A program made the position numbers and the translations under genes. The notes beneath the pieces were generated by a model, which saw only the letters and a list, made by a program, of their open reading frames with translations, had not been told where the DNA came from and made no database searches. From Haplodiscus bocki (taxonomy: Eukaryota), in contig OZ296654.1 of assembly GCA_965655095.1 (NCBI GenBank), forward strand, positions 48,112,001 to 48,176,000: a DNA stretch of 64,000 nucleotides. Direction: 5' to 3'. Of the stretch, positions 34,485-58,139 are shown piece after piece (position 1 is the stretch's first letter; the number at the start of each line of letters is the position of its first letter).

Positions 34485-37200
34485 AAAAATGCCAAAAGTG
34501 CCAAAAATGCCACAATGTCGAAACTGCTAAAAATGCAAAAATATTTAAACATGCCAAAAACGACAAAAGTGCCACAAGTGCCGATAATTCCAAAAGTGCC
34601 ATTAGTGCCAAAAGTGCCAACAGTGCCAAAAGTGCCAGAAAAGCCAATAGAGCTAAATCTACCAAAACGTCCAATGTACCAAGGGTGCCAAAAATGCCGA
34701 AATTGTCAAAAGTGGCAAAAGTTCCAAAAGTGCCAAGGATGCAAAAAATTGCCACAAGTGATAAAAGTGCCAAAAGTGCCAAAAACACCAATTGTGCCGA
34801 AAGCTCCGAACGTGCTAAAAGTGCCAAAATGTCAACAGTGCCAGAAGTGCCGAAAGCGCGAAAAATGACCAAAGTGCGAAAAATTCCAGAAAAATCAAAT
34901 GTGCCAAAAGTGTAGAAAGTGCCAACATTGTCAAAAAAGCTAAAACTGCCAAAAGTGCCAAACGTTCCAAAGGTGTCAAATTTGCCAAAGTGTCAGAAGT
35001 GCCAAAAGTGCCAAAAACGCCAAAAGTGCCTAAAGTTCCGAGAAGGTAAAAATTATAAATTTGCCAAAAGTGCCTAAAGTGCCTAAAGTGCTAAACTGCC
35101 GAAAGTGGCAATAGTACCAAAAGTGCCAAAATTGCACAAACTGTCAAAATGGCGGATTAGCCAATTTTGCCAAAACTGGCAAAGGTACTAAAATTGCAAA
35201 AGTGTCAAAAGTGCCAGTAACGGCAAACTTCTGATCGTGCCACGAGTTCCAAAAGTATCAAAAGTCCCAAAAGTGCCAAATTTGTCAAAAGTGCAAAAAG
35301 TGCCAAAAAAATGCCAAAAGTGCCAAATTTGCCTCAAGTGCCACATTGCCCAAAAGTGCTAATTTTGCCAAAAATGCCAAACATGCCAAAAATGGCAAAT
35401 GTGCCAAAAGTTATTAGTGCCAAAAGTCCCAATAATACCAAAAGTGCCAAAAAGTCCAATGTCCCAGAAGTGCCAAAAGGCCAAATCTTTTAAAAAGGGT
35501 CAAAAGTTCCAAAAATGCCAAATGTTCCAAAAGTGCCAGAAATGTCAAAAGTGCCAAAATTGCAGAAACTGCCAAATATGCCAAAAGTTCCAAAAAGTTA
35601 AAAATTCCAACTGCATAACGTGCTAAAATGCCGAAAGTGCCAAGTGTCCCAAGTGCCAAAGTTGCCAAAAACGCCAAAAGTGCAAAAAATGCAAAAAATT
35701 GAAACTTCTAAAAGTGCCAAGAATGCCTCAAGTGCCTAAAGTGTCTAAAGCTCTAAATTGCCGAAAGTGCTGAAATTGCAAAAGTGTCAAAAGTGCCAGT
35801 AACGGCAAACTTCTAATCGTGCCACAAATTCCAAAAGTGCTAAAAGTCTCAATACTGCCACGATTGTCGAAATTGTCAAAAGTGCAAAAAGTGCCAAAAA
35901 ATGACAAAACTGCCAAAATTGCCTAAAGTGCCACAATGGCGAAGGTTCTAAGTTTGCCGAAAATGCCCAATATGCCAAAAATGGCAAATGTGCCAAACGT
36001 TAATAGTGCCAAAAGTTCCAATAGCACCAAAATTTCCAAAAGTGCCAATAGAGCCAAAAGTGCCAAAACGTCCATTATGCCAAAGGTGCCAAAAGGCGCC
36101 GAAACTGTCAAAAGTGCCAAAAGTTCCAAAATTGCCGAAATCCCGAAAGAGCCAAACGTGCCAAAAGTGCCAAAATGGCCAAAAATCTTTAAAAGTGTCA
36201 GAAGTTCCAGAAATGTCAAAAATGCCAAAAATGCAGAAATTGCCAAACATGCCATAAGTGCCAAAAGTGTCAAATGTTCCAGAAGTGCCAAAATTGCCTA
36301 AAGTGGCAAAATGGCAGAAGAGCCAATTATGCCAAAATTGGCAAAAGTGCAATAAATGCCAAAGAGTGTCAAAAGTGCCAAAAACGGCAAACTTCTAACA
36401 GTGCCAAAAAATCCAAAAGTGCCAAAAGTCCCAATAGTGTCACAAATTGCTAAAAGTGCCGAAAGTGTCAAAATTGTCAAGCGTGCAAAAAGTGCCAAAA
36501 TTGTCAAAAATGTCAGAAATGCCAATAGTGTCAAAGTCCCAATAGTGCCAAAATTGCCAAAGGTTCCAAAGGTTCCAAAGTTGTCAAAAGTGCCAAATTT
36601 TCAAAAATGTCAAAATTGCCAAAAGTGGCTGAAATGCTTGAAATGCCAAGTGCACAAAATGGCATGAAATGCCAAAAGTGCCCAATGTGCGAAAGATTCT
36701 AAAAATTCCATTATTGCCAAAACGCCAAAAGTGCCAAAAGGGCAAATAATGCGAAGAATACAAAAAATGCAAAGAATACAAAGAATGCAAAGAATGCAAG
36801 AAATGCAAAAAAAGATAGCAATGCATGCGATGAATCCAGTGAATGCAAAGAATGCAAAGATTGCGAAAAATTCAATGAATGCAAAGAATGCAAGAAGTCA
36901 AGGAATCCAATGGTTGCAAAGGATGCATAGAGTGCAAAAAATGCAACGAAGTCAAGGATTGCAAAGAATTCAAAGAATGCAATAAATGCAACAAAGCAAA
37001 TAATGCATAGTTGGCAGAAAAAACAAAGAACGCAAAGATTGCAAAAAAAGCAAAGATAACCAAGAATGCCTACAATACCAGGCTTGCCAACAATGCCAAG
37101 AACGCCAAGAATGCCAATATTGCCATGATTGCCATATGTTTTAAAATTGCCTAGATTGCCAAGATTGTCCAGATTGCCAAGAGTGCCGAGATTGCCGATA
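34485..37200. repeat. Second, shorter (~2.7 kb) and more degenerate array of the same 9-bp satellite
   Basis: GTGCCAAAA-type monomers to ~36745, ATGCAAAGA-type to ~37055, GATTGCCAA-type to ~37200; same orientation and order as the end of array 1. Confidence 0.96.
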
Positions 37201-37526: not shown

Positions 37527-38469
37527 TGAAATACTGCAATATTAGTTGTCTTCCCAAGAATCCCAAGAGTTTCAATTTACATCCATTTACTTGAAAATAA
37601 TGTAGAACATTAAAATGCGAAAATTTTAAATTTGACCGAAGTCTATAGTTTTTGAAACAGGTTAAAATCCAGCCTTAGCATGTTCAGAACTCCCCCTATG
37701 TTATTCTTTGGTCTGTCAAATTGCCAAAACTTATTCGAAATCAACTCAAATCAAATATGTTAAAGTATGCACAGGAAAAGCCAAAATGAACAAGCTTCAG
37801 ACTTCGCCCTTTTTTCCAACAAACCAAAAAGGTTTCTTACAATTGTATCTGTTTCAGGCACCAGATCATTGGCCCAGTGAGCTTCCACTTCCTGCACTGC
37901 CACGTTTTTCACTAACTTGACCGCCTATTTGCGATTTCAACTTCAATTCCGTCTCAATTCTGGTCAATTGACTCAAAAATCTGTTACTCTAATACCTCTG
38001 GGTTTCAAAACTGTTTTTTCCCTCTCTTCCCTCTACTTCAAGTTCATTGTCAATAAATCCCAATAATCCTCTTTTCTTTGAAACTGCATCTACTTATTCT
38101 TCTAATCCAGACTGCTTTCCCTCTTTTCAAGCAATATCGACTATTAGCAACTCACCATTCCAAGAATAGCTCGCTCTATCAATGAGTGCATCACTCTGCC
38201 ACCATCACAACGACTTTTTGCATTTCAGATCACATACCAGGCCGTTTTCCAAGAAGTTTATCTGGATGACGATTTCATTTTTCCGTTGAATTTTGAACAA
38301 GACGACATGAGCAACATTCCTCCTCATCCACGCTTCTTTCAGTTTGTCATCTATGTACCTCCGCCTCTCCTGTTAGTCATCCTGAACACATCGATGACAC
38401 CTCTTCACAGCTCTTCAGTTCACTTCCCCGTATTGTTGGTAACACCTTTCTTGAAAACCAAACTTTCAA

Positions 38470-39386
38470 ACTTCTTTTAATGAAAGCAATCTTGCATCCG
38501 CACATTTTTTTGCTGGAAGTTTTCAATTGTTCTTCTTCATACTTGTCCCGGTGTCTTTATTTTTTAAAATTTTTCTGAATTTTCAATATCACCCAGTTTA
38601 CACAAACTTGTCTCCAACTTTCATTTTGTTCTTCATGAAATGATTTTTCAAATGAAATTTCAGAACTTTCTCAAATTCTCTCAACTCTCCATCATGTAAT
38701 TAACAACAGTTCCACTAATTTGAATTTGTCTCCCACCTTTTCCCATTTTTCAATGACCTCGGAAAGCATAGTAACTTTCGAATAAGCTATGAACTTTGAG
38801 TTCCAAGTTTTCTTCATATTGGAACTACCTAAAGAAAAATTGAAAAAGTTAAATCGAATCAAGGTCAAAAACAAAAATTATAAATAGTGATGCTAAGCAG
38901 TGTGGTTTTGTGCTATCGTGTTTCAACTCTCACTAACGTAATGAATCGTACTACTTTCAAAAAACTCATACTTAGTCCAGAAAGTTGGTTGCTGTGAAAG
39001 TCAAACTCGCGCTTCTGGGGAGATTTTGCGGCCTCCGAATTAATGTTCAATCTCACGGCAGCCAAGAAATCTAAACTCAAGCATAACTTGCGCTAACCCA
39101 ATATTTAATTTGAAAAAAAATTATCAGAAAGATTCTCCACTGCAAGTGACACGCCAATTCCTTCAATTCCGGTCGGATGTGGTACAGTCCTCAAATAATA
39201 GTTTTTCGGAGGTTTTCAACACTTTTACTGTAGTGTTAATATGCTCACAAATATCCGTCAAGTGAAATAATCCTAATTGATGCATAGTTAGTCGCTCTTT
39301 TCCGTAGAACCAAGATAACGTCTTTTGAAGTCCGTCTTTCTGAGCTCTCTCTAGTCTAAATTCTAAATCAAAAAGTTTCCTCAGGT
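38470..39386 (-). pseudogene. Decayed RI/NLR-type LRR coding remnant, copy 2
   Basis: A T-rich acceptor-like TTTTTTGTTCTAG precedes an open frame 39386-39163 (LRKLFDLEF...SEKLLFEDCTTSDRN*). Frameshifted LRR-like pieces follow: LKELACHL, VENLSDN, EFDFHSNQLSGL, KLVELLL/LHDGELREFEKVL, LETSLCKLGD. Confidence 0.5.
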
Positions 39387-40379
39387 CTAGAACAAAAAAA
39401 AAGCCTTCCTTTTCAGACCGTTCGAATCACACTTTAGAAGCAAATCGGTCGGCGTACACTCAGATGATCGTGTCTCAGTGAAGGCAACCTTTCTGTTCGA
39501 AATGTCCTTTCTTCTAGATATCTAATATAGCGGATACATGTTATCAACTCCTGTTTACAAAACGGCAACATCTGTCTGTTACATGGAGCTAACTTTTTAG
39601 GCATGATATCAATAATTTAAAGAATTAGGTTAATTGTATATATCATTAATGTGCCACTATACTAACAACTATTTACCAAACATCTTTCAGCTTATGCGTC
39701 CGTGGTAGTTGTAACCCGGTATTTTGTCAAGTTACTTTGAGCCTCGAAAATATACTTCTACACTTGTATCTGGATTTTATTTCGACTGTTTGTGTGATCG
39801 AGAAGAATTGATTGAAAAACCAAAGCTTTCGTTTAAAATTTTGACAGTTTTGCGTGGTTGACTCAGAATTTCTCAGAGCATGATTAGCAGCAAAAAAACA
39901 TCATCCTGGCTTGAGGCGGTCAAAAGTAACCATAATAGAGTGAGACGAAAAATCGCGAAAAACTGAGACGTGAATTCATTGAAAACGTAAACATTACTCC
40001 GTTTACAATTGACAATCGGGTTATCTTGAGCTGGGAATGTTGCATTGTGCTTTGTTTGTTATTTCCAGGATGCAGAAGCTTTGAGTTTTAGCATCACTTA
40101 GTAACTGGCAAGTTTTTACAAGGTGTGTTCGGGTCAGCCTGAGGCACTGGTTTTTAACCCTTTTTAACAGTGGATTCCTCATGCTTGCACATCTCTACTG
40201 TTGAAAAAATTATTTTGCTTCTTTAAGTTAGACAAGAATTGATTGTGACCTCCCTCAAGATTCGATGCTCTCTGGAGACACATGCAGCATTTCATTGAAC
40301 AGATACGAAATACGTGAAACAGTATCGGCCATAGTAATGCAAAAGTTCGACCTCAGAAGTTCAAAAATGATTCCCATTT

Positions 40380-40448
40380 TTATTCGGTAATGTTCTTTTC
40401 AAAAACAACAACATGCCCTCCTACAAATGGGTGAGGGAAGTCTGCAGG
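40380..40448 (-). CDS. Kelch-repeat protein, probable terminal exon (PADFPHPFVGGHVVVFEKNITE*)
   Basis: Completes a kelch repeat in exact 19-residue register with the two preceding repeats, but needs an AA acceptor at 40450-40449. The nearest AG (40443-40442) gives TSLTHL*. Confidence 0.6.
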   Translation of the reverse strand, partial: PADFPHPFVGGHVVVFEKNITE

Positions 40449-40483
40449 TTGAAAAAAAAACGAATTGAACTGATTGAACTCAC

Positions 40484-40658
40484 CTCTGACCATGAATTGC
40501 TTCCTGGGTCATAAATTTCAACACTTGTTTCATCACTAGGACTGTTACAATCACCACCAACTAAGTGGATTCTCCCATTAAATAAAGCTACACCACAGCC
40601 ACGCCGTGCTATTCTCATGCTGGCCACTCTCTTCCACGTCTTGTTCACAGGACAGTAT
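40484..40658 (-). CDS. Kelch-repeat protein, penultimate exon (YCPVNKTWKRVASMRIARRGCGVALFNGRIHLVGGDCNSPSDETSVEIYDPGSNSWSE)
   Basis: Classic kelch repeat (VGG...VEIYDP...W); acceptor TTTTTTACAG, donor GTGAGT at 40483; phases are consistent with the upstream exon. Confidence 0.9.
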
Positions 40659-41288
40659 CTGTAAAAAAATAATTCACAAATTATATTCAAATGTTATGCA
40701 TTGTAGAATTTTTTGAATGTCGTCTGTTTGAAAGAACACAGTTTTGATTTTCCATCACTCTTCCTTCTATGCAAGTAATAAAAAAAAACAAAAATTCTAT
40801 CCATAGTATCCATTTTTACACCTCCTTCAAATTCAGAGTTTATCCTTGTGATACTACATCATTCAAATTACTAGATCTGGTATTACATTTCATTTCTCAT
40901 TTTGTTTGTATGCTGATATCGGAATTCACCCATCAACAATTGAGACCTGAAATGAATTATCCGAACGCTCATATAGTCTCGCAGATCAACTGAAAGTCAG
41001 AATGTTTGTTTTTTTACCATTTTTTTTTCTAGAAACTCAACTACATCAAGGCGACAAAATTGTTTTAGAGACATCATGAGAAAAATAACTTTTCATTTTC
41101 ACTTTTTGACCACTTCATAAACTGCTTAAAGTTGGGCTTAGTTTTGGCGCAACTTTTGTTTCAATTTTTTCCAGAAATCGAACACCCAATTTTCGCATGA
41201 CCTGAACGTTCGTATAACAGTAAAGTCACTATATTTGGATACACTGATGTTTGCCTGATGTAATTGCATGATTAGATCCCTAGCTCAC

Positions 41289-41836: not shown

Positions 41837-44199
41837 TTCGCATGTTAATAGCCTCAACAACTCTTTGTACACTACTGTTTTCTCGAATTAAACTACCTAC
41901 AAAAATTATCTGCTTGTCATCAAATGGATTTTAGTGCTTTTCAGCAACACACACAAAGAAATTTCGAAATGTTTACTCTCCAAGAGACTGTCGGTTACGG
42001 AAACTGGACATACAACAAGAACTAAAACAAAAAAAATAGAACATATCTTCTGCGAATGTCCTATTGCTGAATGATTTGATGGTTATTATATATATTGAAG
42101 CCATTGGATTGATCAAAGCCTAAAACGCGGAAATGCTGTAAATCTTGTAATTTTGTTATTGTAACCGTTTTGTTGTAAATTAGTTACAACTAGGACATCA
42201 GTACCGTAATGCCACCAGAGATTTTATATTTGGCATAAACTGTTCGATCATAGCTCTACTGACCAGTCAGCTTTCGACCAAAACAATGTTTCACAAAGAT
42301 GAAAAAAATACAAAGCAAATCGTATTATCAAATAGTTATGTTTTTTTAATACAATACTCAATTTCAGAATGTTAAAGATTTCTGAGAGCTTAACAAAAAT
42401 TGGTTTAGTTCAATCGAAGGAAGCATACCAAAAAAACTATTGTTTTGTGATATTTGCATTATAACAAACTCATTATAACCAGCGGTGCTAAGAAATTGTC
42501 AATATCTACCTGAGAATGTTGGAAATGTGTCAATTCTAGGAACCACAGCATCTCTACACCTTACGTTTGGAACAAAAGTTATACTATTCCTCAGTTAAAT
42601 TGAACAAAAAAATCTTTATAGTAGGATTATTACAACAAAAACGCATTATTTAAAACATGTGTAAAGCGATAAAGAATTTTGGCAACCAAAAATTTTGCTT
42701 CAGCCTCTGGTCCAAAATGTTTCTCCACTCTTAACAAAATAGATGCCAAAGTACTGATGTCTTACAATTTGGATTTCATACACTATCTGAAAAATTCTTA
42801 AAGTGCAAGCTATCCATGTCATGCTGTTTTAGTCTACTCGTATCACCCTTGTATCTTTCTGTGATTGTTTCGCAAATTGACGTGGTATATCTGGTAAAAT
42901 CTGCAAAGAGGAAATACTGAATTTATAAATTATCGATTTGACTTTCCTGAGAAGAGACTAGCTCCCTTCAGATACGCTTAGTCAGAAAATAGTTTGTTAC
43001 ACTAGATCCTTTTCGCAGTAACAAAACAAGCCACCACTCTTTTTTTCACTTCAACTGGTGATACCTTAAAATTTTTTTCTCGTCTTCCCTTCTTTTTTCC
43101 CAGATGCATTTTACTAATTTTTCTAATATTGCCATTTTACTGGCATTTTGTCAAATGAAGAATTTCATCAATTTTGGTCTCGTGTTTTAATTGCAAAGCT
43201 CTCTGATCTTACTCTTCAACTAACAGAAAAATCATTAAGCGATGATTTCATTCGTTCAAATCTTCCAGATCAATCACCATCATGGCGAGCGTTTTTTCGC
43301 CCTCCAAATCCATGTAATATTTAACGTATAGGGTTACAAGGTCATATTTTAGACTTAACTCTTTTCTTTAGTCCATCCTGGTTTTCTATTGCTTTTATTC
43401 AAACTTTCTGATGCACTGTCTATTTATTAACACAGTGTGGATTTTAATTCTTCACTACTTTGTTTTTTTCAGTTTGTATTATTGAAGAAGGTTTCGCCTG
43501 CAATTTTTTTTGCGTAATTAAACAATATGCTAAAGCAAAATATTGCATTTCTCAGCGTTTGCAATCATTGCTTTCTATTCTGCTTTTTCGCTATTTTCAC
43601 CTTACATTGTTCATAAATGCATATGGATCATGAGCAAAAAACTCAAACCATGACCTCAACATATGGAGCAAGAAAAGTCCAAAAATTCAAAAAAAACGAC
43701 CTTTGTCCTAATAGTATTGAAAGTTACTATCACACTCCCCTGTAACATCTCAATAAAGGGGTCGTTTTGGAAAAGCATCAGCAGAAAATACATTCTTGGA
43801 CTAGAAGTTTATCTCAATAAGAAAAAAGCCACCACTCTTTTTTTGCAATTCACTTTCAACACTTGAAAAAGCATTAACCAAAAACTGAGAGTACTAATGT
43901 TTAAAAATTCACTGGTTGCATACTGTGCCAGAAATTTATTCATTGAACTGTATCTGTAATTCTGTAGCTTGATATGCGTTCGAATTTATGGACGAAAATT
44001 GAAAGCATCAGGTTTTCCGACAAAGTTGAGAATTTGTGTTGTTTGGTGAAAATTTTTGGGACCGGAACGTATGAGTCGGGTTTTTGTTGCAAGTTTTTTC
44101 GGCAAAAATGGTAATCGACACGAATTTCCTCGAAATTCCTATGGAATGCTTTCCGTCGATAGAGAAATAAGCTTGGTGTGCTGAGTGTGTGATTTCCGA

Positions 44200-45551
44200 T
44201 CCAAATATATTACTGGGACCGACAATTCACTTACCTCCTCTGGAATGCTTCTTCGAGTCTCATCATTCATACTGAACTCATGGAGAGTGTTGCTACTTTC
44301 GGATACGTTTTCAAAAGGGGCAGTAATCCCCATATGTTCCCCACGTTCCGAAGTCGCTGTAACTCTGGTAGCGTGTCGCCCAGAGGACGCATTCATTGAC
44401 TGCCAGCTTGATTCTAGGGCTAATGATTTTATCAGTTGAGGTCAAAATTGCATTTGGATCCCATCCCCTACCGTGTCAACATTAATATCCATTTTACTGT
44501 CAATCTTTTCATTGGAACATCTTTTCAAAATTTGAACTTTCACCGAGCTCCCAATGGCTGACATATTACTACTATTATTCTCAAAACCCGTGAACTCCTG
44601 ATCAACAAGATCTTCGTTTACAGCAACACTTTGCTGCCTGTCACTCGCAGCGCTACCAAAAATAACTTATGGATCATGGTCATCTAACTGTCTAAGGAGC
44701 TCTCTTTTGACTGTCTTTTCCTTGGAGTTGAAACCATTTTTGTTTTAACAAATGACTTGTACTTGCAAGAACAATAGGCGAAACAACTAAAAAAAAATTG
44801 GAAATAAATGGCTGCCAAAACGCTTTTGAGACAATTTTTTGATGATTTCGCAGTTTGATCAGAAGTTTAGGCAACTAGTTTCCAATATTATTTTCGGAGT
44901 CCTGAAATCAGCTTCAGGCAAGTTCGGGCAAGGATTCCAGCTTTCGACCTTTTATTCCTCAGCCAATCAGAGTGTCCAGGTTGTTGACGTCACACTTGTA
45001 ACTAGACTCCATTTGAAACATCAAAAAGGTTAGGCCGCGCTTAACATAACATCATTGTGATATCGTCCTAAAAATAGCACATCGTTTGTAGATGAAAGTG
45101 AATGGCACCGGAAAATGATGAAAATTTATATTTGGTTGTAGCAAGCTAAGGTCAAGTTAGAAACGTCATAACCCGAAACATGATTTAATACATGATTTAA
45201 TCCATGAGAAAAGTTAGGTTCGAAAAATCTGGTGAATCCAGAAGCCTCAATGGGATGGTTAGAAAGCATCTCATATCGTCTAGCATGGTTACAGTATCAG
45301 AAGGAAATTACATGTCCTTAAGAACTGTATATTTCCAAACACGTACTAGAAAGTCGTTAGATGAGTAAATTATTGCAATATTTTGTGGCATAAATGAATA
45401 AATAGAATGTGTTCATGGGATTGATTATCATTCATTTTGGCGTGGTCATTAGCACCGTCTTGCAACCAATAAGCCTTTTCTGGAGAGTTAAAAAAATAAT
45501 CAGTGGTTGATTAGATAAAAAGATTTTTTTAGATGAAAAAACATGTAAAAC
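44200..45551 (-). mobile_element. 5' fragment (leader + gag N-terminus) of a Ty3/gypsy-type element related to the one at 45752-57709
   Basis: Colinear similarity (visually ~70%) to ~56365-57705; ATG at 44737 (MVST...) corresponds to 56871; SMNDETRRSIPE vs SMNDEAPRSIPD; similarity is lost below ~44200. Confidence 0.8.
44960..44970. promoter_or_regulatory. CCAAT box (CAGCCAATCAG) in the element leader, ~220 nt upstream of the gag ATG
   Basis: NF-Y-type consensus, identical in both diverged leaders (also 57089-57099). Confidence 0.45.
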
Positions 45552-45751
45552 NNNNNNNNNNNNNNNNNNNNNNNNNNNNNNNNNNNNNNNNNNNNNNNNN
45601 NNNNNNNNNNNNNNNNNNNNNNNNNNNNNNNNNNNNNNNNNNNNNNNNNNNNNNNNNNNNNNNNNNNNNNNNNNNNNNNNNNNNNNNNNNNNNNNNNNNN
45701 NNNNNNNNNNNNNNNNNNNNNNNNNNNNNNNNNNNNNNNNNNNNNNNNNNN
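45552..45751. other. Assembly gap (200 N)
   Basis: Exactly 200 N; the round number suggests a scaffolding placeholder of unknown true size. Confidence 0.99.
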
Positions 45752-45846
45752 GTATGGCCATAACCTTTACATTTTTTAACGAGAATACGTTAAATCATTG
45801 TGATTGATTAATCAATTGTTTCCGGTTTAGGACGTCCATTTCGAAA

Positions 45847-47175
45847 ATGAGAGCGTCCGGTGGTGTTTTTTCACATAGGTTCACTAGCCTTCGTCATTTA
45901 GATCCCAAATCCGAGGCACACAAATTACCCGATGAACGAGAAACTGAGAATTGCCAGAGAGTTTCGCAATTCGGTAATGTGGATATTGTTGTGGTGAGCG
46001 AGACAACAACTTCCCCACGAAAAATTTATGTTGGTTTTTCAGAGTTCACCAAATATAGCCAGAAACAAATCGTCAATGTTGGAGAAAAAGGATTGTGATT
46101 TGATTGTGGATGAAAGGCATTGTGTTGTGACAAGTAATGAGGAAGATGTATAGGATTTGGGTACATTTGTGAATGAGAAGTTGCAGTTTCTGATTGAGAG
46201 TGGTCTGGAGCAACTTGCTGAAGGTGAGAACTTGAATTTGGACGATATACTTTGTGGAAGTGTGGATGTTGAAGAAGGCGGTAATGGCGAAGTGAGATCT
46301 GTGTGCGCAGAGGTGACACGTGGAAGTAACATTGAGGCAACTGGAAATAGGATATCAGGTGGTGATGACATCAACCGAACTTTGCGGGAAAATTTGGGTA
46401 GTTCTAATGTCACTTCAACTCGAGTGCGCGCTGCGTGGCCTAATTACAGAAAAGGTGGAGTAATGATTTCGAAGAGGATGACGTGCTTTTTTGCAAATCT
46501 TTAGAGTTCGATGTGTTGAGTATATTTTGGAAAAGTTGGAGGCGGAGATTTGTCGAGGGGTTTTGTGACGGACGCGATTGAAAGAGTGCCAGAGAGTTTT
46601 ATTATAAGTGGTGCGTTTTCGACTCTGGAGAGTATTACACAACGGCAAGCTAATGAAAGAGTTCTGGGTCCTCGCAGAAGCGCAGAAGATGACATCTTGG
46701 TTGGCATTCCACCAGCAGGAGAGTTGTTGGGGAAAGAGAACGTGCACAACGAGAGAGCAAGGCATTATCCCAGTAAGTCTGCCAAATGTTTCATGAGGGA
46801 TTTTTTTGAACTGAATTCCCCATTCATCTAGATCCTAGTCATCCGACCACCAAATTTATTGTGGATCAAATGATCAAATTTGCTCATGCCGTAGGATTGG
46901 TGATGTCATTGGCGTGTTACGGCATTCTTGAGGATTTGTTGATGAAGGCAAGAGTGGGTAGTGGAAGCCAGCGTGTGACGTTGCGCTACCCTGCTTTGAG
47001 GTCGCCTTTCCCAAGTGTTGCGGGATCCAAAATGGGCGATAGTGTCGCTTCACGGTCGGCCTACTCATTGCCGTCTATAACTGAGACAGAAAGTAGTAAT
47101 TTTCTTGCTAACGAGAATGTGTTGCAACAGCCGTGTTCCAGTAGACAAGCTGATGTTTGTTTGGTTTTGGGGTAA
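45847..47175 (+). pseudogene. Decayed spliced gene 1 of unknown function, antisense to gag-pol
   Basis: Removing a 49-nt GTGAGC...TTTTTCAG intron (45994-46042) puts ORF 45847 in frame with ORF 46157, with one internal TAG. A second ~50-nt intron candidate is at ~46455-46504. It continues through ORFs 46550 and 46861. Confidence 0.55.
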
Positions 47176-47199
47176 GCTGGAAGTAAGAAGCCTGGGACT

Positions 47200-47889
47200 G
47201 ACAGTCTCAAAACTTTTCCAGCAAGTGAAGTTGAATGAGAAGAAGAAGAAGTCGCGTATGTGGAAGTGGTCAAGAGAAGGTCGGTTGAATCGGTTGTTTC
47301 CCAGTGGTGACGATAAAGGTGATTATGTGTTCACGGACCAAATATTGGAGCTTGCTCTTTTGCCAAAGTGTTTGCTGCGGGACGTGATGACCCTCTGGAG
47401 AAAAAAGAGTGCTTCTAATATATGTTGTGCAGTAGAAGCATTTCCATGAGGGCAGGAGCGTTTCATCAAAAAAACCCAATTATTAGCGAAATTATCCTTT
47501 TCGATCATATCAGAGGTTCAAGGAGAAGGTATTGTCCACAGAAAGTTCGTCGTTGGGGTAGAAGTGTACTAAATGGATTAAAACTGGAGGCTGAGCGTGA
47601 ATTCTACATGGAGTTGTACGTGCAGGATTGGGATTACAAAACGCCCTTGTATTGTGATGTTCTGGAAGGGAAACCATTTATGTTTACATCAGAAGAGTCT
47701 CGTGTCCGAGTCCAAATTTTTTCGTTCATAACGTTCTTGAAAAGTGGAGGACAGCTTTGGGCTCTGGAAAATTACAGGGCGCAGGTGGAAGTTGCAACCG
47801 GCCACTCAGCATCAATTGCTGATTTCGCTTGTGGTCCAGCTCACATCTCAGTTAGTGTTATTGGGTTTGATTTGTTATTTTTCAAGTAA
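47200..47889 (+). pseudogene. Decayed ORF 2 of unknown function, antisense to gag-pol (may continue gene 1)
   Basis: ORF 47422-47889 (155 aa, normal globular composition) and an upstream frameshifted piece. Confidence 0.4.
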
Positions 47890-48059
47890 TTTGTCATAGT
47901 AGGGTCAGCTTGTGGGTATTGAGACTAAATTTTGCTCGTTATGTTAAGGGGCCGTCATTTGGGGGAAAGAGAACGGTTTTTCTACCATTGTTTCACGATC
48001 CTGCTTGTTGCGGACCACTACGACTAATTGTCGGCATCTGAGTATCAGTTTTTTTGAAG

Positions 48060-49908
48060 GCAGATGATTGGTGACTATGTTGATTACTCATTGTGGTCGT
48101 GATGTTGCTGTTGTGAAAAGTACTGTTTTGCTGAGTTCACAATCGTCGAGTGCCGTTTCAATTAAAACCGACTGTTATTTTTTGTGGGGTGGAGTATATT
48201 AGGTTGCTGGACAAAATCCCAAGTCAGACGGCCGGGATACAATATCCATTTAATTTAGTGCCAGTTCAAGTGGAGAAACTCATGAATAAACTGAGTTTCG
48301 GTGTAAAGGGCAAAAGTGATATGTGTCCGTGGCTTGGTCTTTGCTAGTGCGGTTGTCAGGTTTATTGGAAGAAAAATGGACACAGTTGACACAGTAGTTC
48401 CTTAAATTGAGCTAGTTGTATAAACATGATGTGGTCAGGGCAACGGATTAGGTCCTTTGTTTTGTACAGTGAAGTTGTTGTTGTTTAGGCGTTGGAGGAA
48501 TCGAAATTGGATTTGTTCACCGGGATTTTAGTAGTGCAGGATATGTCAAGTCACTGACCATAGATTTTGTCCCTTATTAGCAGTAATTGGCAGCAACAAG
48601 AGTTTTATTTAGTCTTTAATGATGTGGTTTGAAAACGGGTGAGTTTTGCTTTCTTTGCTTTTGCTTGAATTGTTTTTATGTTAAGCTTTCGGTGCCCAAT
48701 TTATTAGAGTTGAGCTGTTTGAATACCTATTGGATTTGTTTTATCAAAGATTATTTTGAGGCTTTCAAACGATCCTCAACCGTTAAAAAGGGCCAATGTT
48801 TTTTCTTGTCCGGGAAATTCTTGGACTTTCTCCACCGTTTTTAGCGTCGGATTATTTCGAGAGACTGATTGCCGATGCTCTGTTGGGATTCAATTTTACA
48901 AACGTTCAGCTGCTAACAGTTTAGCAAATTGAGGAGAGGACGGACTTCCGGACGAAGGGAATGAGGGCTGCAAAAGGACAATTTGTTGTCGAGAGGGAGA
49001 AGAATGACACAGCGGCGACTGATGCCATTGCCAGCGCTGTTATGGGGAAATGTATAATCCACACGTTGGCAAAGGGAAGGCGTACATTGGATATGTATGC
49101 AAGGAGCTGCTCAAGCACCCAACAGTTAAGTCCGATTTAATGGTGGGTTTGGCTTCTTTTGACTATTGCGTTCTTTTCACCCTGCCAAAAAGTCAAGATG
49201 CACTTTCTTTCCCGACTGTTCCAAAGCTTCTTTGCTCGCGGCTGGTTGTCGAAGGAGTTTAACAATGTTCTTTTGGACAATTATCTTGAGTTTGTTGATG
49301 ATCTGCGGTTTATATAATTAGACAAGATGCATTTCGGCCCAAAAAATGAAGATACGGTCACATTTTTGTCATCAAATCCAGAATTGGCCAGACCAGAAAA
49401 TAACTCGTACGTTTTTTTTTGCATTTGTGGCACGTGGTTCAAGAGTTTCCAAAGGTGTCATTGGGTTCAACTGACAGAAGTTCCGTGGTTGTGCACTTGT
49501 CAGACATCATTGAGGCTCTACAAAGTTTTTATCGAGCAGCAGTTCAGAGTTGAATATTTTTATAAGTGCTGAGTCTGTTCTTCATGTGCCGACGTGTTGG
49601 CTGGTTTCGGAGATAAGGCGCTGCGACCGGGATACGAACTTCGGATGAGCGATGACTTTCATGATCGGGCTGAAATCCATGCTGATTTCACTAATGCCTA
49701 TATGAATGTTAGGCTTGCTGCAAATGTGGAAGCGGGTACTGAAGCTACTAAATCCCCTGAAACTCGAGAGAAGCTTCATCCACAGCGATGTCAGCCTGCA
49801 CAAAAGCCTCGTATTGATTGGGGCAAAACTTCTAAGGCTACTTCTGCCAAAGTTTTGGGTGCACAACTCCGTTCTCCTCGTTCAGGCCCCAGTGGTGGTT
49901 CCTTTTAA
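48060..49908 (+). pseudogene. Decayed spliced gene 3 of unknown function, antisense to gag-pol
   Basis: 47-nt GTGAGT...TTAAG intron candidate (48639-48685). After it one frame runs, with a few stops, FGAQFIRVELFEYLLDLFY...MRAAKGQFVVE, then by frameshifts through ORFs 49050, 49327 and 49594 to a stop at ~49906-49908. Confidence 0.55.
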
Positions 49909-50094
49909 TTTGTTTGTATGTATACTCCTGAATTTTGCAGTTTTGTTATTTTTTTGGGTTGATATTGTTGATGTTTAGTATTTTTATGCCACCGAACTCG
50001 AAACAAATGCAATGTGTGCAGAGACAAAAGTATTGTGAAAAGAAAAAAAGAACACAATATAGGTGCTAGAACAGATTCTTGCACGCCTCCTTAT

Positions 50095-51720
50095 CTCTAT
50101 AGTCTAAGTAGTTAGGGTTAGGATTAGGGTGCAAGTTATAATTACCACCTCCAGAGTGACTAAATTTGTCTTGCGGAGCGTCTTCTGTATTAGGATCATT
50201 TATTTTGGTCGATGGAGAGGGGAGACTTCGCGCTGATGATGGATTTCGTATAGACTCGTATGCAGGTTCGGTGCCTGTCTTGGATTCGGGTGATCGATTT
50301 GAGAAAATTGAACGGAGCATTTCTGGAATTGCCAAAAATTCCAACATTTGACCTCGCGTTTCAATATTGGGAGGATTTACTGTGCACGGTTCAGAAACGG
50401 GGCGTGTCTGCCGATTTTAACCGTTGCTTGTGTCATGAAAGTAGGAACGCAGTATAATCGAATAATCACAGTATCTGGTCACTGAGTGTGACTTTTAACA
50501 AAAATACGGGCGTTGGGATCAGTGTATATGATAGCAATATCAAACAAGTGTGCTCCAAAGTGTGTACAGATTATCTTGCGGTACTATAATGTTATCGTCA
50601 ATCTGCCTTTGGGCTTCCTAAAAATTGTCTTCAGTGGGATTTTTGTGATACTCTTTCTGGAGACGAATCATGTGTATGATTTAAGTAGTATTAGTAATAG
50701 TTTTTTGCGCAATGTAATTGCTGTTCGGTAGAATTTATTCTACTACAAAAAGTCCAATCCATATTAAGTCACAAGAAAAGTAGTTTTGACCCTTGATGGT
50801 ATGCTTTTGACTGAAGCTTAAAACAGTAGTAATTTTTTTCTCCAGCGAGGAAGATTTGGCTTTCTTGGGATAATAATTTTTCTACCTTTTGTAGGATTGA
50901 TTGACATTTTTCTTGGTTTTCTCTTACAAAGTTTTAGTTCTGCTAAGAAGTTGATCCGGAAAGTCTGTCGTGATCGCTATTGGGGTTGAATCGCCGTCCT
51001 AGTTTGTGATCTAGGTTTTTGTCCCGTGAATAGCTCGGCTTGGTTCACAATCAAAACTGGAATGGTAAGTTGCATTGTATATCTAGATTGCAATCGTTTA
51101 TTATTTGTGCCATTGTTTCCTATATTCGCCTTATGCCAACTTAAACGAGGTCTTAGATGTGGCATCGGCCCGTTCTAGGACTCCGATTGTTTGTGCACGT
51201 TTAGTTGATGCATGCTTTAAGTTGTTACCAAGTATTTCTGGTACTCCGTGTTCGGCTTGGGAGATAAAAACGCTTCCCTTGCCTGTGAAAATGAGTGTAG
51301 GCACGGCCGCTTGTCTTGTCATGATGTCTTCAATAACTTTGGTTGTGTCTGCTGCTGTGGGGTAAGACACTGGGTAAGCAAATGCGTACCTTCAAATTAC
51401 GTCTATACCTGTGATAATGTTATCATATCCTCCACTTGGCAGTAGTTCTGGTAATAGATCGATTTGCATGAGATCCTCGTAACCGAGATCCCTTTCTGGG
51501 CTGTGGATTAGTTTTGGTTTCATCCGTGAATTCTTTATGCGTTTGACTTGTATGCATACTGCACACTCTCGGACCCAGTTTTTGACATAAGTTGCAATTG
51601 AAGGGAATTAATTTTTTGTCGGAGTTCTTGCAAAATATTGGAAAGGCCTGGGTGTTTGCAGCTGATCCATGTAAGGATCCTAGTAACACTTCCAGTAATT
51701 CTCCGGGCCAGAGGACTTCC
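50095..51720 (-). pseudogene. pol: pol remnant: integrase (Zn-binding region, DDE core) and C-terminal tail
   Basis: MQIDLLPELLPSGGY (D at 51460-51458), IFTGKGSVF (TDxG decayed), QTIGVLER; tail with IDDNIIVPQDNLY and GNYNLHPNPNPNY. Confidence 0.9.
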
Positions 51721-52189
51721 AAATGACAAACTTCACCAAAGTCGGTCTAGTTTTGTCAGCACAATATTTCGTCCCTGATGATGATGCATTTTTGTTTCCG
51801 GAGTAATCCATGAAGCGAGCATCATTGATCAGAATTTGTTCATCGAAGGGTAGTCCCAACATTTCACGTTTGATGTTGAGTAAGTTGTGATCCGAATCTT
51901 GTTCGATAAGTTTGCGTGATGGTTTGGTTAACTACGCTATGTTAACAGTTGCTGTACCTTTGTGAAGGTCACTGGTGCTGTAAAACGACACTGTTATGAC
52001 CGGAAGTTCGGTTGGTATAGTGTGGCATGTTTTTTTAAGCTGCCAGAGTTGTCCTCAGTAGTTTCCTGTGAGTCTGTGGTATCGAGAGAGACCAGTTCCT
52101 CCTGCGCGATGCCTGTGGATTCAAATTTCATTTCAATTGGTTTAATAGGAATGTCTTTAGGATTTTTAGGATTCTTTTTGTCGTTAGGA

Positions 52190-52590
52190 TCAAGTTTCAG
52201 TCAGTATAGGAATTCAGCTGCAGTGTTCGTCTTTCCTGGTATATGTGCTATAGTGAAAACAATTGCAATACAAAATCACGGGCGTTCCATATTGGACGAG
52301 GAATCATTTTTTTCCCGAAAAATCGGGTGACTGATTTGCTGTCTGTCATGATATTCACAGGCTATGTTGTCCTCCTAAATATCTATCCCACTCCTTTGAA
52401 GGCTATTCAAAGGGGTGGGATTTTTTTGCTTGATAGGACATTTTGATTTGGGATGGACTAAATGTTTTAGATCCATTTGCTATAGGGGCATAGGTTTTGT
52501 GTGTTGACATATTTTTCTTATTTGGGTCGTCTTTGATTAGTACGGCGTATCCAGTTGCTTCAAACTATGCGTCTTTCATAAGGTCCAGTT
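52190..52590 (-). pseudogene. pol: pol remnant: RNase H
   Basis: LMKDA..FEATGYAVLI, YAPIANGSKTFSPSQIKMS, IMTDSKSVTRFF, IAHIPGKTNTAA. Confidence 0.88.
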
Positions 52591-52849
52591 GTTTAAAGGG
52601 TAGCGTTTGGCGCAGTGTCAGTTGGCAACATCGGTCCAAGGCTTCGTTGATTTCCTGAAGTCTTTCAATGTTTCTGGAGTGACCGGTATTTTGGCTTTAG
52701 CAATTGTCGCTTTGAGAATTTGGAATTACGGGGATGGTCGCTCTGCTAAGCTAGGTATATAGTTTCGATTATATGTCAAAAATACTTTATAGCGTTCACG
52801 TGCTTTTTTGGATGGTGGGAGTTTGATTTTTCTAGGATTTTAGCAATTT

Positions 52850-53580
52850 TTGGTTCTGTGGGCCACTCCTTGCTCTGTTATCGAACGTCCTAGAAAGTCT
52901 ATTTCTTGTACCCCAAGATGGTGTTTAGGCAAGCTGAGTTTCCGTTCTGCCTTTCTGTGACATTGAAAGACTGCTCGTAAGTTTTTGATCAACTGTTGAG
53001 GGATATATGCGGCAATACCAATATCATCAATATAATGTGCACATTGATCTGCTGTGATAACTGGATCAAGATATTCACGAATAAAACTTGAGAAGAACGT
53101 TAGGGAACGAATTGGTCCGTGTGCTAATCTACGGTTTGCAAATGTTCTGCTAGCAAAGTTAAATGCAAGCAGTTCAATTTATTGTTGGTCAGCTTTTTAA
53201 AGACAATGGTAGGCTTGGGAACAATCAAGTTTGCAAAACAAGTTTTCCAATGCCATGTGCTGAGCTGCGTCGATTAATGTACTGACTGGATGGTTATTAT
53301 TGATGTAGTCATTTTGTGTCAGGGTATTGACTTTAGGTAGGTCAACTAAGATACGTAGTTTCCCATTCAGTTTTCACTGTGCAAAAATTGCACTTGAATT
53401 TTTGGTGCAGGGTAGAGCTATGATGACGCGATACTTGTGTAGTAGGCCTACTTCTACCAAAATGTCATCTTTGAGTTTGATTGGGGCGAGAAGGCGTTGG
53501 CTGTTAGCGCTAGCATCCAGTGGTGTAAGTTGGACTTTAAACTTTCTTATTGACGATGTCAAACCGATGTCGTGCATAAA
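52850..53580 (-). pseudogene. pol: pol remnant: reverse transcriptase
   Basis: KLRILVDL, FCKLDCSQAYHCL, FNFASRTFANRRLAHG, YIDD at 53034-53023, IDFLGRSIT. Confidence 0.95.
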
Positions 53581-54289
53581 AGTCGTGAAAAATGGCAAGC
53601 AATGCTTCAGGGGCAAGCTTGGCCTCAAGTACTATTGTTCAGTCTATCTAATCGAAGTTGGTTGAAATTTGTGCCAGGGATTCATTATCGTTCTCTAATT
53701 TTTTCCAAATCGCGTAACTCGCGGAGAATACGCGTTTGTATGGGCATATGTTCCTTTTCTTTGCTTGATTTTTAGGTTTTGGGAACCAATAGGTTCCATT
53801 AAGTTCATCAGTTTTGGACGTTTTAAGAAGGTTGTTTTAATGGTGAATGGCGTCATCATAGATGTTATTTTAAAAATGTTTCACCGAAGTTGGGTTGACA
53901 GTTCTAAACTTTTTCGTTTGTTCAGGAATTAGTATCAAATAATTCGCTACGTGCAACTTTTTTTTTGAGTGTACACGGGTGATCAAGAAAATTTCTGATT
54001 TTCACCATCTGTTTCTTTTTCTTGTGTTGTTGAGCACCGGGCAATTAAGGAGGTCTTCAACATTTTTTAAGAGTTTAAGAGCAGCGAGGTTTGTATCATG
54101 CCTGTCGCTCGCTTTAATTTAGGTATAAAATAGTGATTGAACCGAAATTTTGGTTCGTTTAACCAGATGAATTATAGTTTCCAGTGGGTTTAATATCGGC
54201 TCCATAACTTTGGAAGATGTTCGATTTTCATTTTTCAGCTGCATTGAAAAGAAGGGAAATTTTAGCAACCCTTGACGGATATCGAGTTT

Positions 54290-54600
54290 TGTACTGTTGC
54301 GCTGAATGAAAAGCCGATCAAAGGGCTTTTGAGATTTGTCATGACTAGGTATTTCTTCTCAAAAGTAAAATGACCAATTTCGATTTGCAATTTTGTTGTT
54401 GCGATAGATGATTCTAATTGTCCATTGGCAACCATGATTTGGTACTCTGGTGGGGGGCCTTCGTCTAACATTGTATGTGGAGCTAATAATGGAACTTTGC
54501 ATAAGTCGGTTTCCGGAATGGCATCTGTCAAAGCGCCTGTGCCCATAAAGCCGTCGATGTTTAGCTCCCGTAAATTCATTGGAAAATGTAGCATAATGCG
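54290..54600 (-). pseudogene. pol: pol remnant: aspartic protease (catalytic D lost)
   Basis: IDGFMGTGALTDAIPE (DTG decayed to GTG), IMVANGQ, LIG, within ORF 54262-54780. Confidence 0.8.
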
Positions 54601-55259
54601 TTTGTTTTTCAAAGGTAGATTGGTTGATATTAGGCGGAACTTCGTGAATCCACGTGGAGATTCCTGGAGCTGCGGAAAGTCTTGGTCAACAATGACTGGG
54701 AGTTGCCCAATGTGGTTTGTGGTCCTGGAAGAAAACGAGGTATTGGTGATGTATCGGGTAAAAGTGGGTTTACTGTTCACAAATAAAATAATGCATACAG
54801 AAGTACATCCGATACATGCGACTCGGTGATTAGATCATATCTCTCAATTTGGTCATTCAGTTTGTTGTGGTTGTATGTACACTGTAGTTTCTCTTGATCA
54901 TATAGATTTGCATCCTAATAGGGGACGCAACCGTTTTGAGGGTCAACCAATTGTGGGTCGTGAGCAACGACTTCTGGAAAGGGTCTGAATTGATTATTGA
55001 AGTCTTCTGTGTAAACGTTTTTGTATGATGGAAGTGTTTTATGGATCATGTGGATGTTATTATCTCTGTCTTTGAATATGAACTTTTTCCATTTCTTGCT
55101 GCCAGACAACTGCTAGAGTTGCAGTTTTGTGAGTTCTTTGTGAATTGTTTACTACATTGGGCGGATCAGTAAAGACCTAATGTCTCACTGAAGTGTAATC
55201 CGACCCTTGGAGTTGTTGCTTCTTTAGCTCAAAAGATTTTTAAGAATGGACATAGGTCC

Positions 55260-56871
55260 CGTTTGGGTTGAATTTTTTTAATTCTGCCCTTCCATTGAGT
55301 TTTCCATTGGCTGGTCTTCGTTGAACCTTTCGGACCTATTTGCGGAATTAGGGAAGTCACAGCATTTTTCGGGAGGGTGATTCGTTCATTGACAATGTGG
55401 ACAAGGGGAAATTGGTTGGGATGTCGTGGGTTTCACGTCTTGAAGTGAAGGGTCAATTCTCTGTTTTTGTTCTTTCCTGATTCCTTGACGACAAACTCTA
55501 ATAAAGTGGCCTGATTTTTTTAATACAGGCATACAATCTTAGACTGTTTTTTTGTAGTTTATCATGTTAAGGTGTAGCTCTTTTTGTCGGTATATATATT
55601 TCGCCAACATTATCCAAGCCAATGAGTTCTAATTCTCTTTCAATATGTGTCACAATTTGGTCATTAGTATCATTTTCGAGATAGGCAAATTTAATTGATC
55701 GTTTTATGTGGGTTGGTAGTTCCCGGTGATGAGGCTGTCTATAATATGCTGTGCGTCGTTACCAATTGTTGAGTTCCTCCGAAAATTCGGATAGAAATCT
55801 CACATTGGGATCAAACGTGAGTTTGTGACATTTGTGGTTGGCAGTGCCTTGTGACTCTGGTTTATCGTTTTTTTCGTCGAAAAACATTTTAGATGTCCTC
55901 AAGAGTCTTTCTGTTTGGTGCACTGGTGTTTTTGAATGTCTCAATTTTTTCTTTCCGTAAGTGGGCGTAGAAGTGGTCGATTTTCATTGCCTCCGTCCTT
56001 GTTGGCTGAACTTGAAGCATTGTGTGGATTATATCTTCTAGGATTTCAAATTTTTCATTTTTTTCCATCGAAAACCAATGTGTTTGTGGATACTGGTTTC
56101 AAAATCATAGTTGCTTGTGGTAGTTGCTGGGATGTAAATCCCGCATTGGCCTCAGATAGACAGCTAATTGAATTGATCGAGACAGAGTTTTGATGTTTTT
56201 GTGTATGTTGAACTAATGGTAAGTTATTATTTTGTGATGCTTGTGTTGACAAAGTTTGATACTTGTGTGATGGGGTGTCGAGTTGTGTTAGAATTTGTGC
56301 GGTGGGAAACTCAGGGATTTGACTTGCTTGAGCTGTTTTTCCTGTCACCATGTGATGATAGTCGGTTCCTGGGACCAGAAATTCATCTAACTTGTCCGGA
56401 ATGCTTCTTGGAGCCTCATCATTCATACTCAATACACTGAGAGTGCTGTTCCTGTCAAATATTTATCGAAAAGGTCAGTATTTCCAAAATGTTCCCCACG
56501 TTCCGAATTCAGTGTAACACTCGTAGCGTCTCACCTAGAGGACTGCCAACTCCATTTTAATGGTAACGACAATATCAATGGCGGTCAAGAAAACGTTTTG
56601 ACTCCCATCCTCTACCGTGTCAACAATATTACCCATTTCCCTTTCAATCCATTCACTGGAAAAATGTTCCAATTTTAAACATTCATCGAGTTCTCATTAG
56701 TGGACATATTACTACTTTTGTTTTCAGAACCCGCAAAATTTTGGTCAAAATTACCTTCGTTGCAGGCAACAATTTGTTTAGTGCCACTGGCAGCGCTACC
56801 AACAAAAAACATCTTGATCATAGTCATCTAATTGGCTAAGGAGATTGTCCTATCAATCGAGTTGAAACCAT
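55260..56871 (-). pseudogene. gag: gag remnant with two CX2CX4HX4C zinc knuckles
   Basis: ATG at 56871; FDGKNEKFE, HKLTFDP, YLENDTNDQIVTHIERELEL; knuckles CLY*KKSGHFIRVC (~55490-55530) and CPHCQ*TNHPPEKC (~55360-55402). Confidence 0.85.
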
Positions 56872-57088
56872 AATTCCTATAACAATTGATTTGTACGTGT
56901 GAAAACATGAGGTGAATCAAGCAATAAAGTTCAAATTAAATAGCAACAATAATAAGTTTTAGGCAATTTTTGAAGATTTCTCAGTTTATTCAGCAGTTTG
57001 TGCAACTGTTTTCCAAATGTTTTTGGAGTTTTGAAATCATAATCAGGCAATTCCGGGTGAAGATTCCTCCTTTTGAATTTTTGTTGGT

Positions 57089-57099
57089 CAGCCAATCAG
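57089..57099. promoter_or_regulatory. CCAAT box (CAGCCAATCAG) in the element leader
   Basis: Identical to 44960-44970, at a similar distance from the gag ATG. Confidence 0.45.
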
Positions 57100-57707
57100 G
57101 GATTCCTCGTTGCTGTTGTCATGCCTGTAACTATATCTAAACATGATACATCAAAGAGATTATGCCGCTTTTAACATCACATCATTGTGAACTGTTTCTG
57201 AAAACAGCACCTCTTTTGTATATCAAAGTGGGTGACACCGAAAAAAAGAAGAAACATGCGATTTGGTTATTGCAAGCAAATAAGAAGTTAGAAACGTCAT
57301 GATAGAACCGAAGAAGGTAGAAGAAGGAGAAGGTAGAAACGTCAAGGTAGAATGGAAACATGATTTCTTGCATGAGAAAAAATGGAGGCGATATACTTGG
57401 TGAATCCAGAAGCCTCAATGGGATGGTTAAAAAGCATACCATATCATCTAGCATGGTTGAAATAACAGGTAAATTACTTGTCCTTAAGTCTCGTGTTTTT
57501 CCACAAATGTACATGAAAGTCGTTAAATGAAAAAATTAGTGCATTTTTTCGAGGCACAAATGAAATTATAGATTGTTCCCATGGGACTGATCAACATTCA
57601 ATTTGGGTGGTCATAGCGCAGTGATTAGTAACGTCTTTTGACCGACAAGTCTTTTTCAGGAGAGTTTTTATTGAAAATAGTCGCTGGTGGATTCGATTAA
57701 GATACTT

Positions 57708-57709
<2 letters not shown>

Positions 57710-57780
<71 letters not shown>
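57710..57780. repeat. (TA)~35 microsatellite
   Basis: Perfect TA run read directly. Confidence 0.99.
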
Positions 57781-57783
<3 letters not shown>

Positions 57784-58139
57784 TTACATATAAATAGCAT
57801 CTATAGCGTCGTTAGAATGGTTGTGGCCAAATCTGTCTCTTCATTGTCTCTTTTTCCTCCGTTCCGCTTTCACATAGAGGCGACCGCTTGCGGTGAACAA
57901 ACTGAGCAAAAGTAGGTCCTAGTGACCGAGTTTTGACCACTCGCTTGAAGGGCTGCTCGCTGGCGAGAAAATTGGTGGAGTTAATTATTTCGATCAATCA
58001 GGATTAGATAAGATACTGCGCGTCAATTGAACATTGTAAACTTTTGTTTGGACAGATTTCCAATTGATATCTAGCGCATTCATTGATAGTTTGGATTTTA
58101 TTACATTCATGTCAAAATTAATTTTTCATATGTATATAA

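Follow-up and report, generated by a model that had tools for sequence, protein, structure and literature searches.

Several long terminal repeat (LTR) retrotransposons carry an open reading frame (ORF) on the strand opposite to gag-pol. Such antisense ORFs after pol are known in Retand, Grande, RIRE2 and the fungal element Boty, and their origin and function are described as unknown (PMC7264820, PMC11963269). In plant Retand/Tat elements (TRP28, PF04195; gene23 of maize Grande) the ORF is conserved, sits after pol and before the 3' LTR in the orientation opposite to gag-pol, and is predicted to bind DNA, with a function unknown in plants (PMC11963269, PMC7264820). The plant antisense ORFs show no similarity to other transposons (PMC7264820). 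Here we describe a gene with the same location and orientation in a Ty3/gypsy element of Haplodiscus bocki, found in a stretch of 64,000 nucleotides (the window; assembly GCA_965655095.1, contig OZ296654.1, forward-strand positions 48,112,001 to 48,176,000). The window holds, from 44177 to about 57900 on its minus strand, one old and broken copy of the element. Our analysis of this copy and its relatives points, with a probability that we put at roughly 0.55, to a Ty3/gypsy clade carrying one conserved antisense gene inside its LTRs, predicted to have four coding exons and to encode a protein that is likely descended from a hAT-type transposase and has likely lost catalysis. Such a protein would bind DNA and serve as a trans-acting regulator sustaining expression of the element's copies.

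The plant ORFs are the closest precedent, but they encode a different protein. In H. bocki there is a single gene with at least three predicted GT-AG introns, and its product of about 1,295 amino acids combines an RNase H fold with a finger of BED type; PF04195 gave no match on it at E values up to 1, and the Pfam name of the Retand domain, transposase 28, offers a loose parallel. The Grande antisense ORF has its own internal promoter, where for the present gene an internal promoter is proposed, and the word 'intron' does not occur in the accessible text of PMC11963269. In build the product resembles Hermes and other hAT transposases (PDB 4d1q, 2bw3, 8sjd), its top Foldseek matches, with which it shares the helical domain and the RNase H-like core; its finger resembles their BED finger. 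Element-encoded, sequence-specific activators have been described as well, namely VANC in VANDAL elements and TnpA in Spm, the latter reported to be transposase-derived (bioRxiv 10.64898/2026.08.24.746577, PMC13547354), and loss of the DDE (aspartate-aspartate-glutamate) triad is described as a recurrent route to regulators, which provides a precedent for a dead transposase (bioRxiv 10.64898/2026.08.24.746577). Those proteins are found in DNA transposons or in host genomes, whereas here a class I element keeps a class II protein whose role is assigned by analogy. Outside plants, HBZ of human T-cell leukaemia virus type 1 (HTLV-1) is a spliced antisense gene, driven from the 3' LTR, that regulates transcription; it too is an antisense accessory gene of an LTR retroelement but encodes a basic leucine zipper (bZIP) protein. 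The gene brtn of Botrytis Boty is reported to be another antisense gene in a non-plant LTR retroelement. No such cassette is described in the accessible portions of PMC8365987, PMC6431247, PMC13524379, PMC5408684 and PMC12477816, and our literature search found no LTR element with an intron-bearing antisense gene of hAT descent; Repbase, Dfam, subscription papers and supplements lay outside that search, and a prior annotation there is possible.

Linkage of the antisense gene to pol within LTRs

The window copy is an old relic and the biology of the element must therefore be taken from its relatives. A search of the genome with the part of the antisense gene (the cargo) at 48900-49950 of the window returned 245 candidates, 40 of which, including the window itself, were scored; the 39 other copies are 67-71% identical to the window. 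These 39 and a further 20 loci, hand-picked via two distant proteins and favouring divergent copies, form a set of 59 loci, and in 56 of them the cargo is followed downstream by pol, which is encoded on the other strand. A count of such tail-to-tail linkage had been proposed by an earlier annotation of this DNA made without database searches (the sequence-only reading), which took the locus for one ambisense LTR element, and that view is upheld by the relatives, where cargo and pol both lie inside the LTRs. The exceptions are L007 and L008, which represent the same match and are interrupted by an inserted element, and L038, a rearranged fragment. The insertion (L007, L008:4450-7423) sits near the end of cargo exon 4; its ORFs look like a protein-primed DNA polymerase, and it may be Polinton-like.

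Approached from the pol side, an integrase query gave 1111 candidates, of which 40 were scored and 20 of the 39 other than the window were fetched: exons 1, 2 and 4 are all present in 16, exon 4 is truncated in one more, two copies are internally deleted and one is without cargo. The two deleted copies (L042:7363-7900 and L043) keep only the start of exon 1 and, in the one copy that was read through, the end of exon 4. Their LTRs are 97-98% identical and their target duplications intact despite the loss of most of the cassette, which fits a cargo that acts in trans. Across the relatives the LTRs measure 1.8-2.0 kb and have TG...CA ends, the two LTRs of a pair are 94-100% identical (where at least 1.4 kb could be aligned) and 5-bp target duplications were found by script in 14 of 16 cases, one miss being a boundary offset. 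The positions of the LTRs, their identity and the target duplications together indicate that the cargo lies within the LTRs and moves with them, and that the family was recently active. The sequence-only reading would have been troubled by a block that was single-copy, unlinked to pol, equipped with its own terminal inverted repeats and target duplication, or without open, selected frames; none of these was found, and among the 59 loci there is no free-standing cargo with its own inverted repeats and an 8-bp duplication.

Between the cassette and the 3' LTR, full-length relatives carry in addition a sense ORF of 328 amino acids that overlaps the 3' LTR and stands head-to-head with the antisense gene (ratio of nonsynonymous to synonymous substitution, dN/dS, 0.25). 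It was located at L047:2055-3041 (minus) and also in L044, L052, L058 and L041, has no Pfam match and is not seen in the window, where an assembly gap occupies its place.

The pol ORFs of L029 and L030 show the Pfam order protease-reverse transcriptase (RT)-RNase H-integrase, and the best PDB sequence matches are the RTs of foamy virus and Ty3. A tRNA-Leu(CAG) that fits the primer site TGGTGACAGGA is predicted at two of the three genome loci scanned. The 3' pattern of tRNA-Leu fitting this site has 572 matches genome-wide, with a tandem array at a spacing of about 424 bases or multiples of it (G000:C1:161072333-161173261). No long polypurine tract was found at the 3' LTR (L040-L059, L081, L085), which is preceded, on the element strand, by a C run and then GGGAG in the family of the window copy and by a short G run and then AG in a second family described below; the corresponding site of the window copy falls within the gap. 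This atypical primer does not undo the paired LTRs, the target duplication, the primer site and the order of pol as marks of a Ty3/gypsy element.

One gene, predicted to be spliced from four exons

The exons of the cargo in natural copies are 2001, 486, 135 and 1266 nt long. Each length is divisible by three, all are in phase 0, and together they encode about 1,295 amino acids. Single exons are open in individual copies: exon 1 in L025, exon 2 in L029, and exon 4 (421 amino acids) in L030 and others. Splice sites were aligned in 27 copies, one of 28 with a non-homologous 5' end having been dropped. GT donors are present in 25/27, 23/27 and 26/26 copies at introns 1, 2 and 3, and AG acceptors in 24/27, 25/27 and 26/27, which gives 149 of 161 positions across the three introns. 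The intron lengths are mostly not multiples of three (they are so in 9, 4 and 4 of the 27 copies for introns 1-3), so that the reading frame needs splicing. Conservation is 0.68-0.73 in introns against 0.77-0.82 in exons.

Purifying selection on the cargo, which the sequence-only reading had marked as a point to check, is evident from dN/dS values (pairwise medians over unsaturated pairs with dS above 0.15) of 0.23, 0.13, 0.14 and 0.15 for exons 1 to 4. Exon 1 is heterogeneous: the ratio is 0.34 over the 330 codons at its start and 0.11 around the finger. Shifted frames of the cargo give 0.8-1.6. Stops make up 0.3-0.8% of codons in the cargo frame versus 2-8% in other frames, and a second set of 22 loci yielded a dN/dS of 0.12 for integrase and 0.07-0.36 for the cargo.

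A protein search of 1.84 billion representatives gave 1093 matches at E <=0.001, all of them unnamed in the 10 clusters examined. Several proteins about 30% identical to the cargo terminate just past the same donor position, and three relatives (P0041, P0091, P0096) continue over that junction without an insert. On the strength of the GT-AG sites conserved in the DNA, the cargo is very probably spliced, as the sequence-only reading had supposed. Its count of two or three accessory genes did not survive: the exon phases, the splice sites and the read-through relatives rule out separate genes and indicate one gene with four coding exons.

Coding on the pol strand was also considered; the antisense frame that shares third positions with the cargo has a dN/dS of 0.21-0.48 but contains 2-7% stops. 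An env-like cargo was rejected on its strand and on the lack of any env match in Pfam or by fold. Searches for longer or fused homologues of the cargo, which are weak as evidence, found none, and no cargo relative was found in metagenome scans.

Nature of the encoded protein

The cargo, anonymous to the sequence-only reading, is predicted to encode a protein with a finger of BED type ahead of an RNase H fold, with hAT transposases as its best match. The four ligands of the finger are kept in 30/31 (C), 29/34 (C), 31/38 (H) and 32/39 (H) rows. An AlphaFold2 model of P0096, a natural read-through relative, contains the finger, the helical domain and an RNase H-like sheet (predicted local distance difference test, pLDDT, 73). 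With this model, ranks 1-10 of a Foldseek search of PDB are all Hermes (E 1.1e-3 to 9.1e-3, 180-320 columns), and rank 1 in BFVD is a hAT protein (362 columns, E 5.7e-3). The Atlas lead is DUF659 (0.76), a domain that we take to be linked to hAT. The fold search suggested by the sequence-only reading has in this respect been answered in part, as Foldseek ranks hAT first, but at E values of 1e-3 to 9e-3 only.

The protein nevertheless departs from Hermes and its kin. Its N-terminal part is about 480 residues longer, it travels within LTRs by retrotransposition and has no free-standing copies, and it lacks both a conserved D/E at the end of strand 4, the position of the second DDE aspartate, and a CxxH after strand 5. 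Strand 1 retains E in 14/19 rows, in an uncertain register, and the third catalytic residue was not located. With the second aspartate and the CxxH both missing, catalysis is likely to have been lost. The cargo protein has a hAT-like build, yet fails as an active hAT transposase. Genuine hAT families with open ORFs of 591-641 amino acids occur in the host genome, one of them with many equal-scoring copies (L112-L117).

Several results weigh against a hAT assignment. The Pfam zf-BED match on the cargo (E 0.5-0.8) lies below the cut-off, no Foldseek match reached E 1e-3, and the TM-scores are about 0.2. VIA-align recovered no more than an RNase H fold of generic kind at residues 205-291 (Z <8). 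The chains ranked highest were those of Argonaute, actin-like proteins and integrase, and Hermes is absent from the top 50 of either VIA-align run. Profile comparison with eight hAT ORFs of the host genome matched the finger only, at a score of 24.2 versus a maximum of 22.6 in 30 shuffles, and nothing in exons 2-4; a model of exons 2-4, for which the source protein still contained two in-frame introns, reached a pLDDT of 54 and had no clear match. For exon 4 there was no Pfam match, including the dimerisation domain PF05699, the low-confidence model had no clear fold and Atlas gave no usable match, and a PDB sequence search with the cargo alignment A1 likewise found no match. We consider descent from a DDE transposase to be well supported and probable, and descent from hAT in particular to be likely, though held with less assurance.

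A second family and the exchange of modules

The same gene occurs in a second gypsy family, studied at 10 hand-picked loci, whose integrase is 47-55% identical to that of the first and forms a separate clade in the integrase tree (support 100/100; 21 of 23 rows, two short rows having been dropped). All 10 loci carry the gene at 28-34% identity and convergent with pol; in the two loci followed further outwards, the LTRs measure 1.8 kb and the primer site is that of the first family. The second-family cargo has about five GT-AG introns of about 70 nt each, one of them at the intron 1 position, and its third codon positions vary two to three times as much as the first and second.

Within the first family at least three types of cargo exist, saturated at synonymous sites and with dN up to 0.4, on elements whose integrase dS is about 0.5 (L040-L059, L091-L099), and the 328-residue sense ORF is nearly identical (dS 0.10) between elements with different cargo types. 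These unequal distances show that modules are exchanged among elements, and from such comparisons the cargo variants look older than the pol genes that carry them.

Proposed function and alternative explanations

In LTR retrotransposition it is the genomic RNA that is copied. In the present element this RNA would start from the 5' LTR and carry the cargo in antisense, with introns that would be invisible to the spliceosome and copied intact. The introns would persist because packaged genomic RNA holds them in antisense, where splicing before reverse transcription cannot remove them. The cargo mRNA would come from the opposite strand, likely from an internal promoter in the region of 700-800 nt that extends to the head-to-head 328-residue ORF, and the combination of a finger, a dead transposase, a long fast-evolving N-terminal part and basic stretches would fit a nuclear DNA-binding factor. 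By analogy with VANC, TnpA and transposase-derived factors, we tentatively favour a role as regulator or anti-silencing factor over integration targeting and counter-defence. It is nearly as likely as not that an ancient LTR clade domesticated a whole intron-bearing hAT transposase and keeps exchangeable long-lived variants of it, the dead enzyme serving the element to counter silencing or to regulate in a sequence-specific manner. Less favourable to such a role, no 7-mer in the LTRs and the intergenic region rose above shuffles and no array of binding sites was found there. TGGTCAA or GGTCAAA occurs four to five times per LTR (L047, L054, L058, L042, L040), not above shuffles in any single LTR.

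The same gene of the same origin might instead steer integration, the dead transposase binding chromatin or target DNA and tethering the integrase complex, as chromodomains tether integrase in other gypsy clades. The strong constraint on the DNA-binding finger and the transposase-type scaffold would suit this function, and the deletion copies could receive such help in trans, but the 16 target-site duplications have no visible consensus and only one of 16 flanks is family-like, with six short cross-matches among the flanks (a small sample, right flanks only). We regard integration steering as unlikely. A factor for counter-defence or competition, serving as a decoy for silencing proteins or as a dominant-negative partner of active hATs rather than as an activator of its own LTR, appears slightly less likely still. 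At least three deeply diverged cargo types on a near-uniform integrase fit variants long kept under conflict, and multi-copy hAT families with open ORFs are present in the host genome; however, the cargo is not close in sequence to the hATs of that genome, and in no exon is amino-acid change in excess.

A further reading is a spliced, selected gene that is not of hAT origin and joins a zinc finger to an RNase H-fold domain, supplied either by a host gene or by some other DDE superfamily. VIA-align and the profile tests do not single out hAT, and neither the CxxH motif nor the hAT C-terminal Pfam domain was detected. Three libraries nonetheless place hAT first, and the order of the cargo (finger, helical domain, RNase H strands, long helical region) is that of Hermes and other hATs. 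We hold this reading to be improbable. That the cargo is a nested insertion that arose by chance, or a passenger of no consequence for fitness next to pol, as the decay of the window copy and its adjoining assembly gap might have suggested, is refuted by the linkage at 56/59 loci, the location inside LTRs, the dN/dS of 0.11-0.34 and the occurrence in two distant families.

The copy in the window

The features of the window copy are given in Table 1. The sequence-only reading had placed the end of pol, on the minus strand, where we find it, and relatives finish in the same NPNPNY motif; its plus-strand coding remnants converging on pol, the decay of both blocks (stops and frame breaks in each), the G/T-rich skew of the plus strand across the two and the lack of an LTR between them were all confirmed. 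It had put the cargo where env and the 3' LTR would be: the cargo does follow pol, but a 3' LTR is present farther left. The two LTRs of the window copy are 73.4% identical over 1306 aligned bases (Kimura two-parameter distance, K2P, 0.33), and no target-site duplication was identified for it. Its cargo retains GT/AG at two of six aligned splice-site columns, one donor having been deleted.

Table 1. Features of the Ty3/gypsy copy in the window (positions in the 64,000-nucleotide stretch).
Feature	Position	Strand	Remarks
3' LTR	44177..45551	-	Enters N gap; holds a duplicate of the gag 5' end, likewise in relatives; TG start on plus strand at the LTR start of relatives
Assembly gap, 200 N	45552..45751	.	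In relatives: remaining LTR, 328-aa sense ORF and stretch upstream of antisense gene
Antisense gene, coding exon 1	45847..47850	+	ATG at 45847; fast-evolving N-terminal part, BED-type CxxC..H..H finger, helical domain; broken; GT donor 47851
Predicted intron 1	47851..47976	+	Right end approximate; 149-226 nt in relatives
Coding exon 2	47977..48406	+	First RNase H-like fold strands; start approximate; partly deleted in window
Predicted intron 2	48407..48488	+	77-82 nt
Coding exon 3	48489..48603	+	45 codons in relatives; 3' end deleted in window
Predicted intron 3	48604..48678	+	73-80 nt in relatives; donor missing in window
Coding exon 4	48679..49908	+	Predicted all-helical region and basic C-terminal tail; stop at 49908; broken
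pol (protease, RT, RNase H, integrase)	50095..55240	-	Broken; tblastn pieces; Pfam domains from open relatives
gag	55227..56845	-	Broken; start within 5' LTR; Retrotrans_gag and zf-CCHC matches in relatives
Primer binding site TGGTGACAGGA	56340..56350	-	Complementary to tRNA-Leu(CAG); same site in relatives
5' LTR	56351..57900	-	Outer end approximate; match reaches 57708, then TA run

gag begins within the LTR, which contains its start codon and about 200 of its codons (window 44148-44761 and 56351-56845; L047:334-969 in a relative), and every LTR therefore carries a gag fragment. Elsewhere the window contains an A-rich satellite with a 9-base period (1-31000 and 34480-36750) and a 2.3-kb direct duplication at 91% identity (32001-34282 and 37904-40199), beside which a frame at 40421-40693 presumably resembles kelch repeats.

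Implications

Where the antisense ORFs of LTR retrotransposons come from and what they do are presented as open questions in the plant literature (PMC7264820, PMC11963269). In the H. bocki element the type of donor can be traced, the exon structure is intact and young copies exist, so that expression and DNA binding are directly testable. Given the predicted splicing, it also exemplifies in nature how antisense orientation lets introns survive reverse transcription. If our reading is true, a transposon of one class would have domesticated an enzyme belonging to another class, as is usually described for host genomes, and retroelements would join the settings in which dead transposases become regulators.

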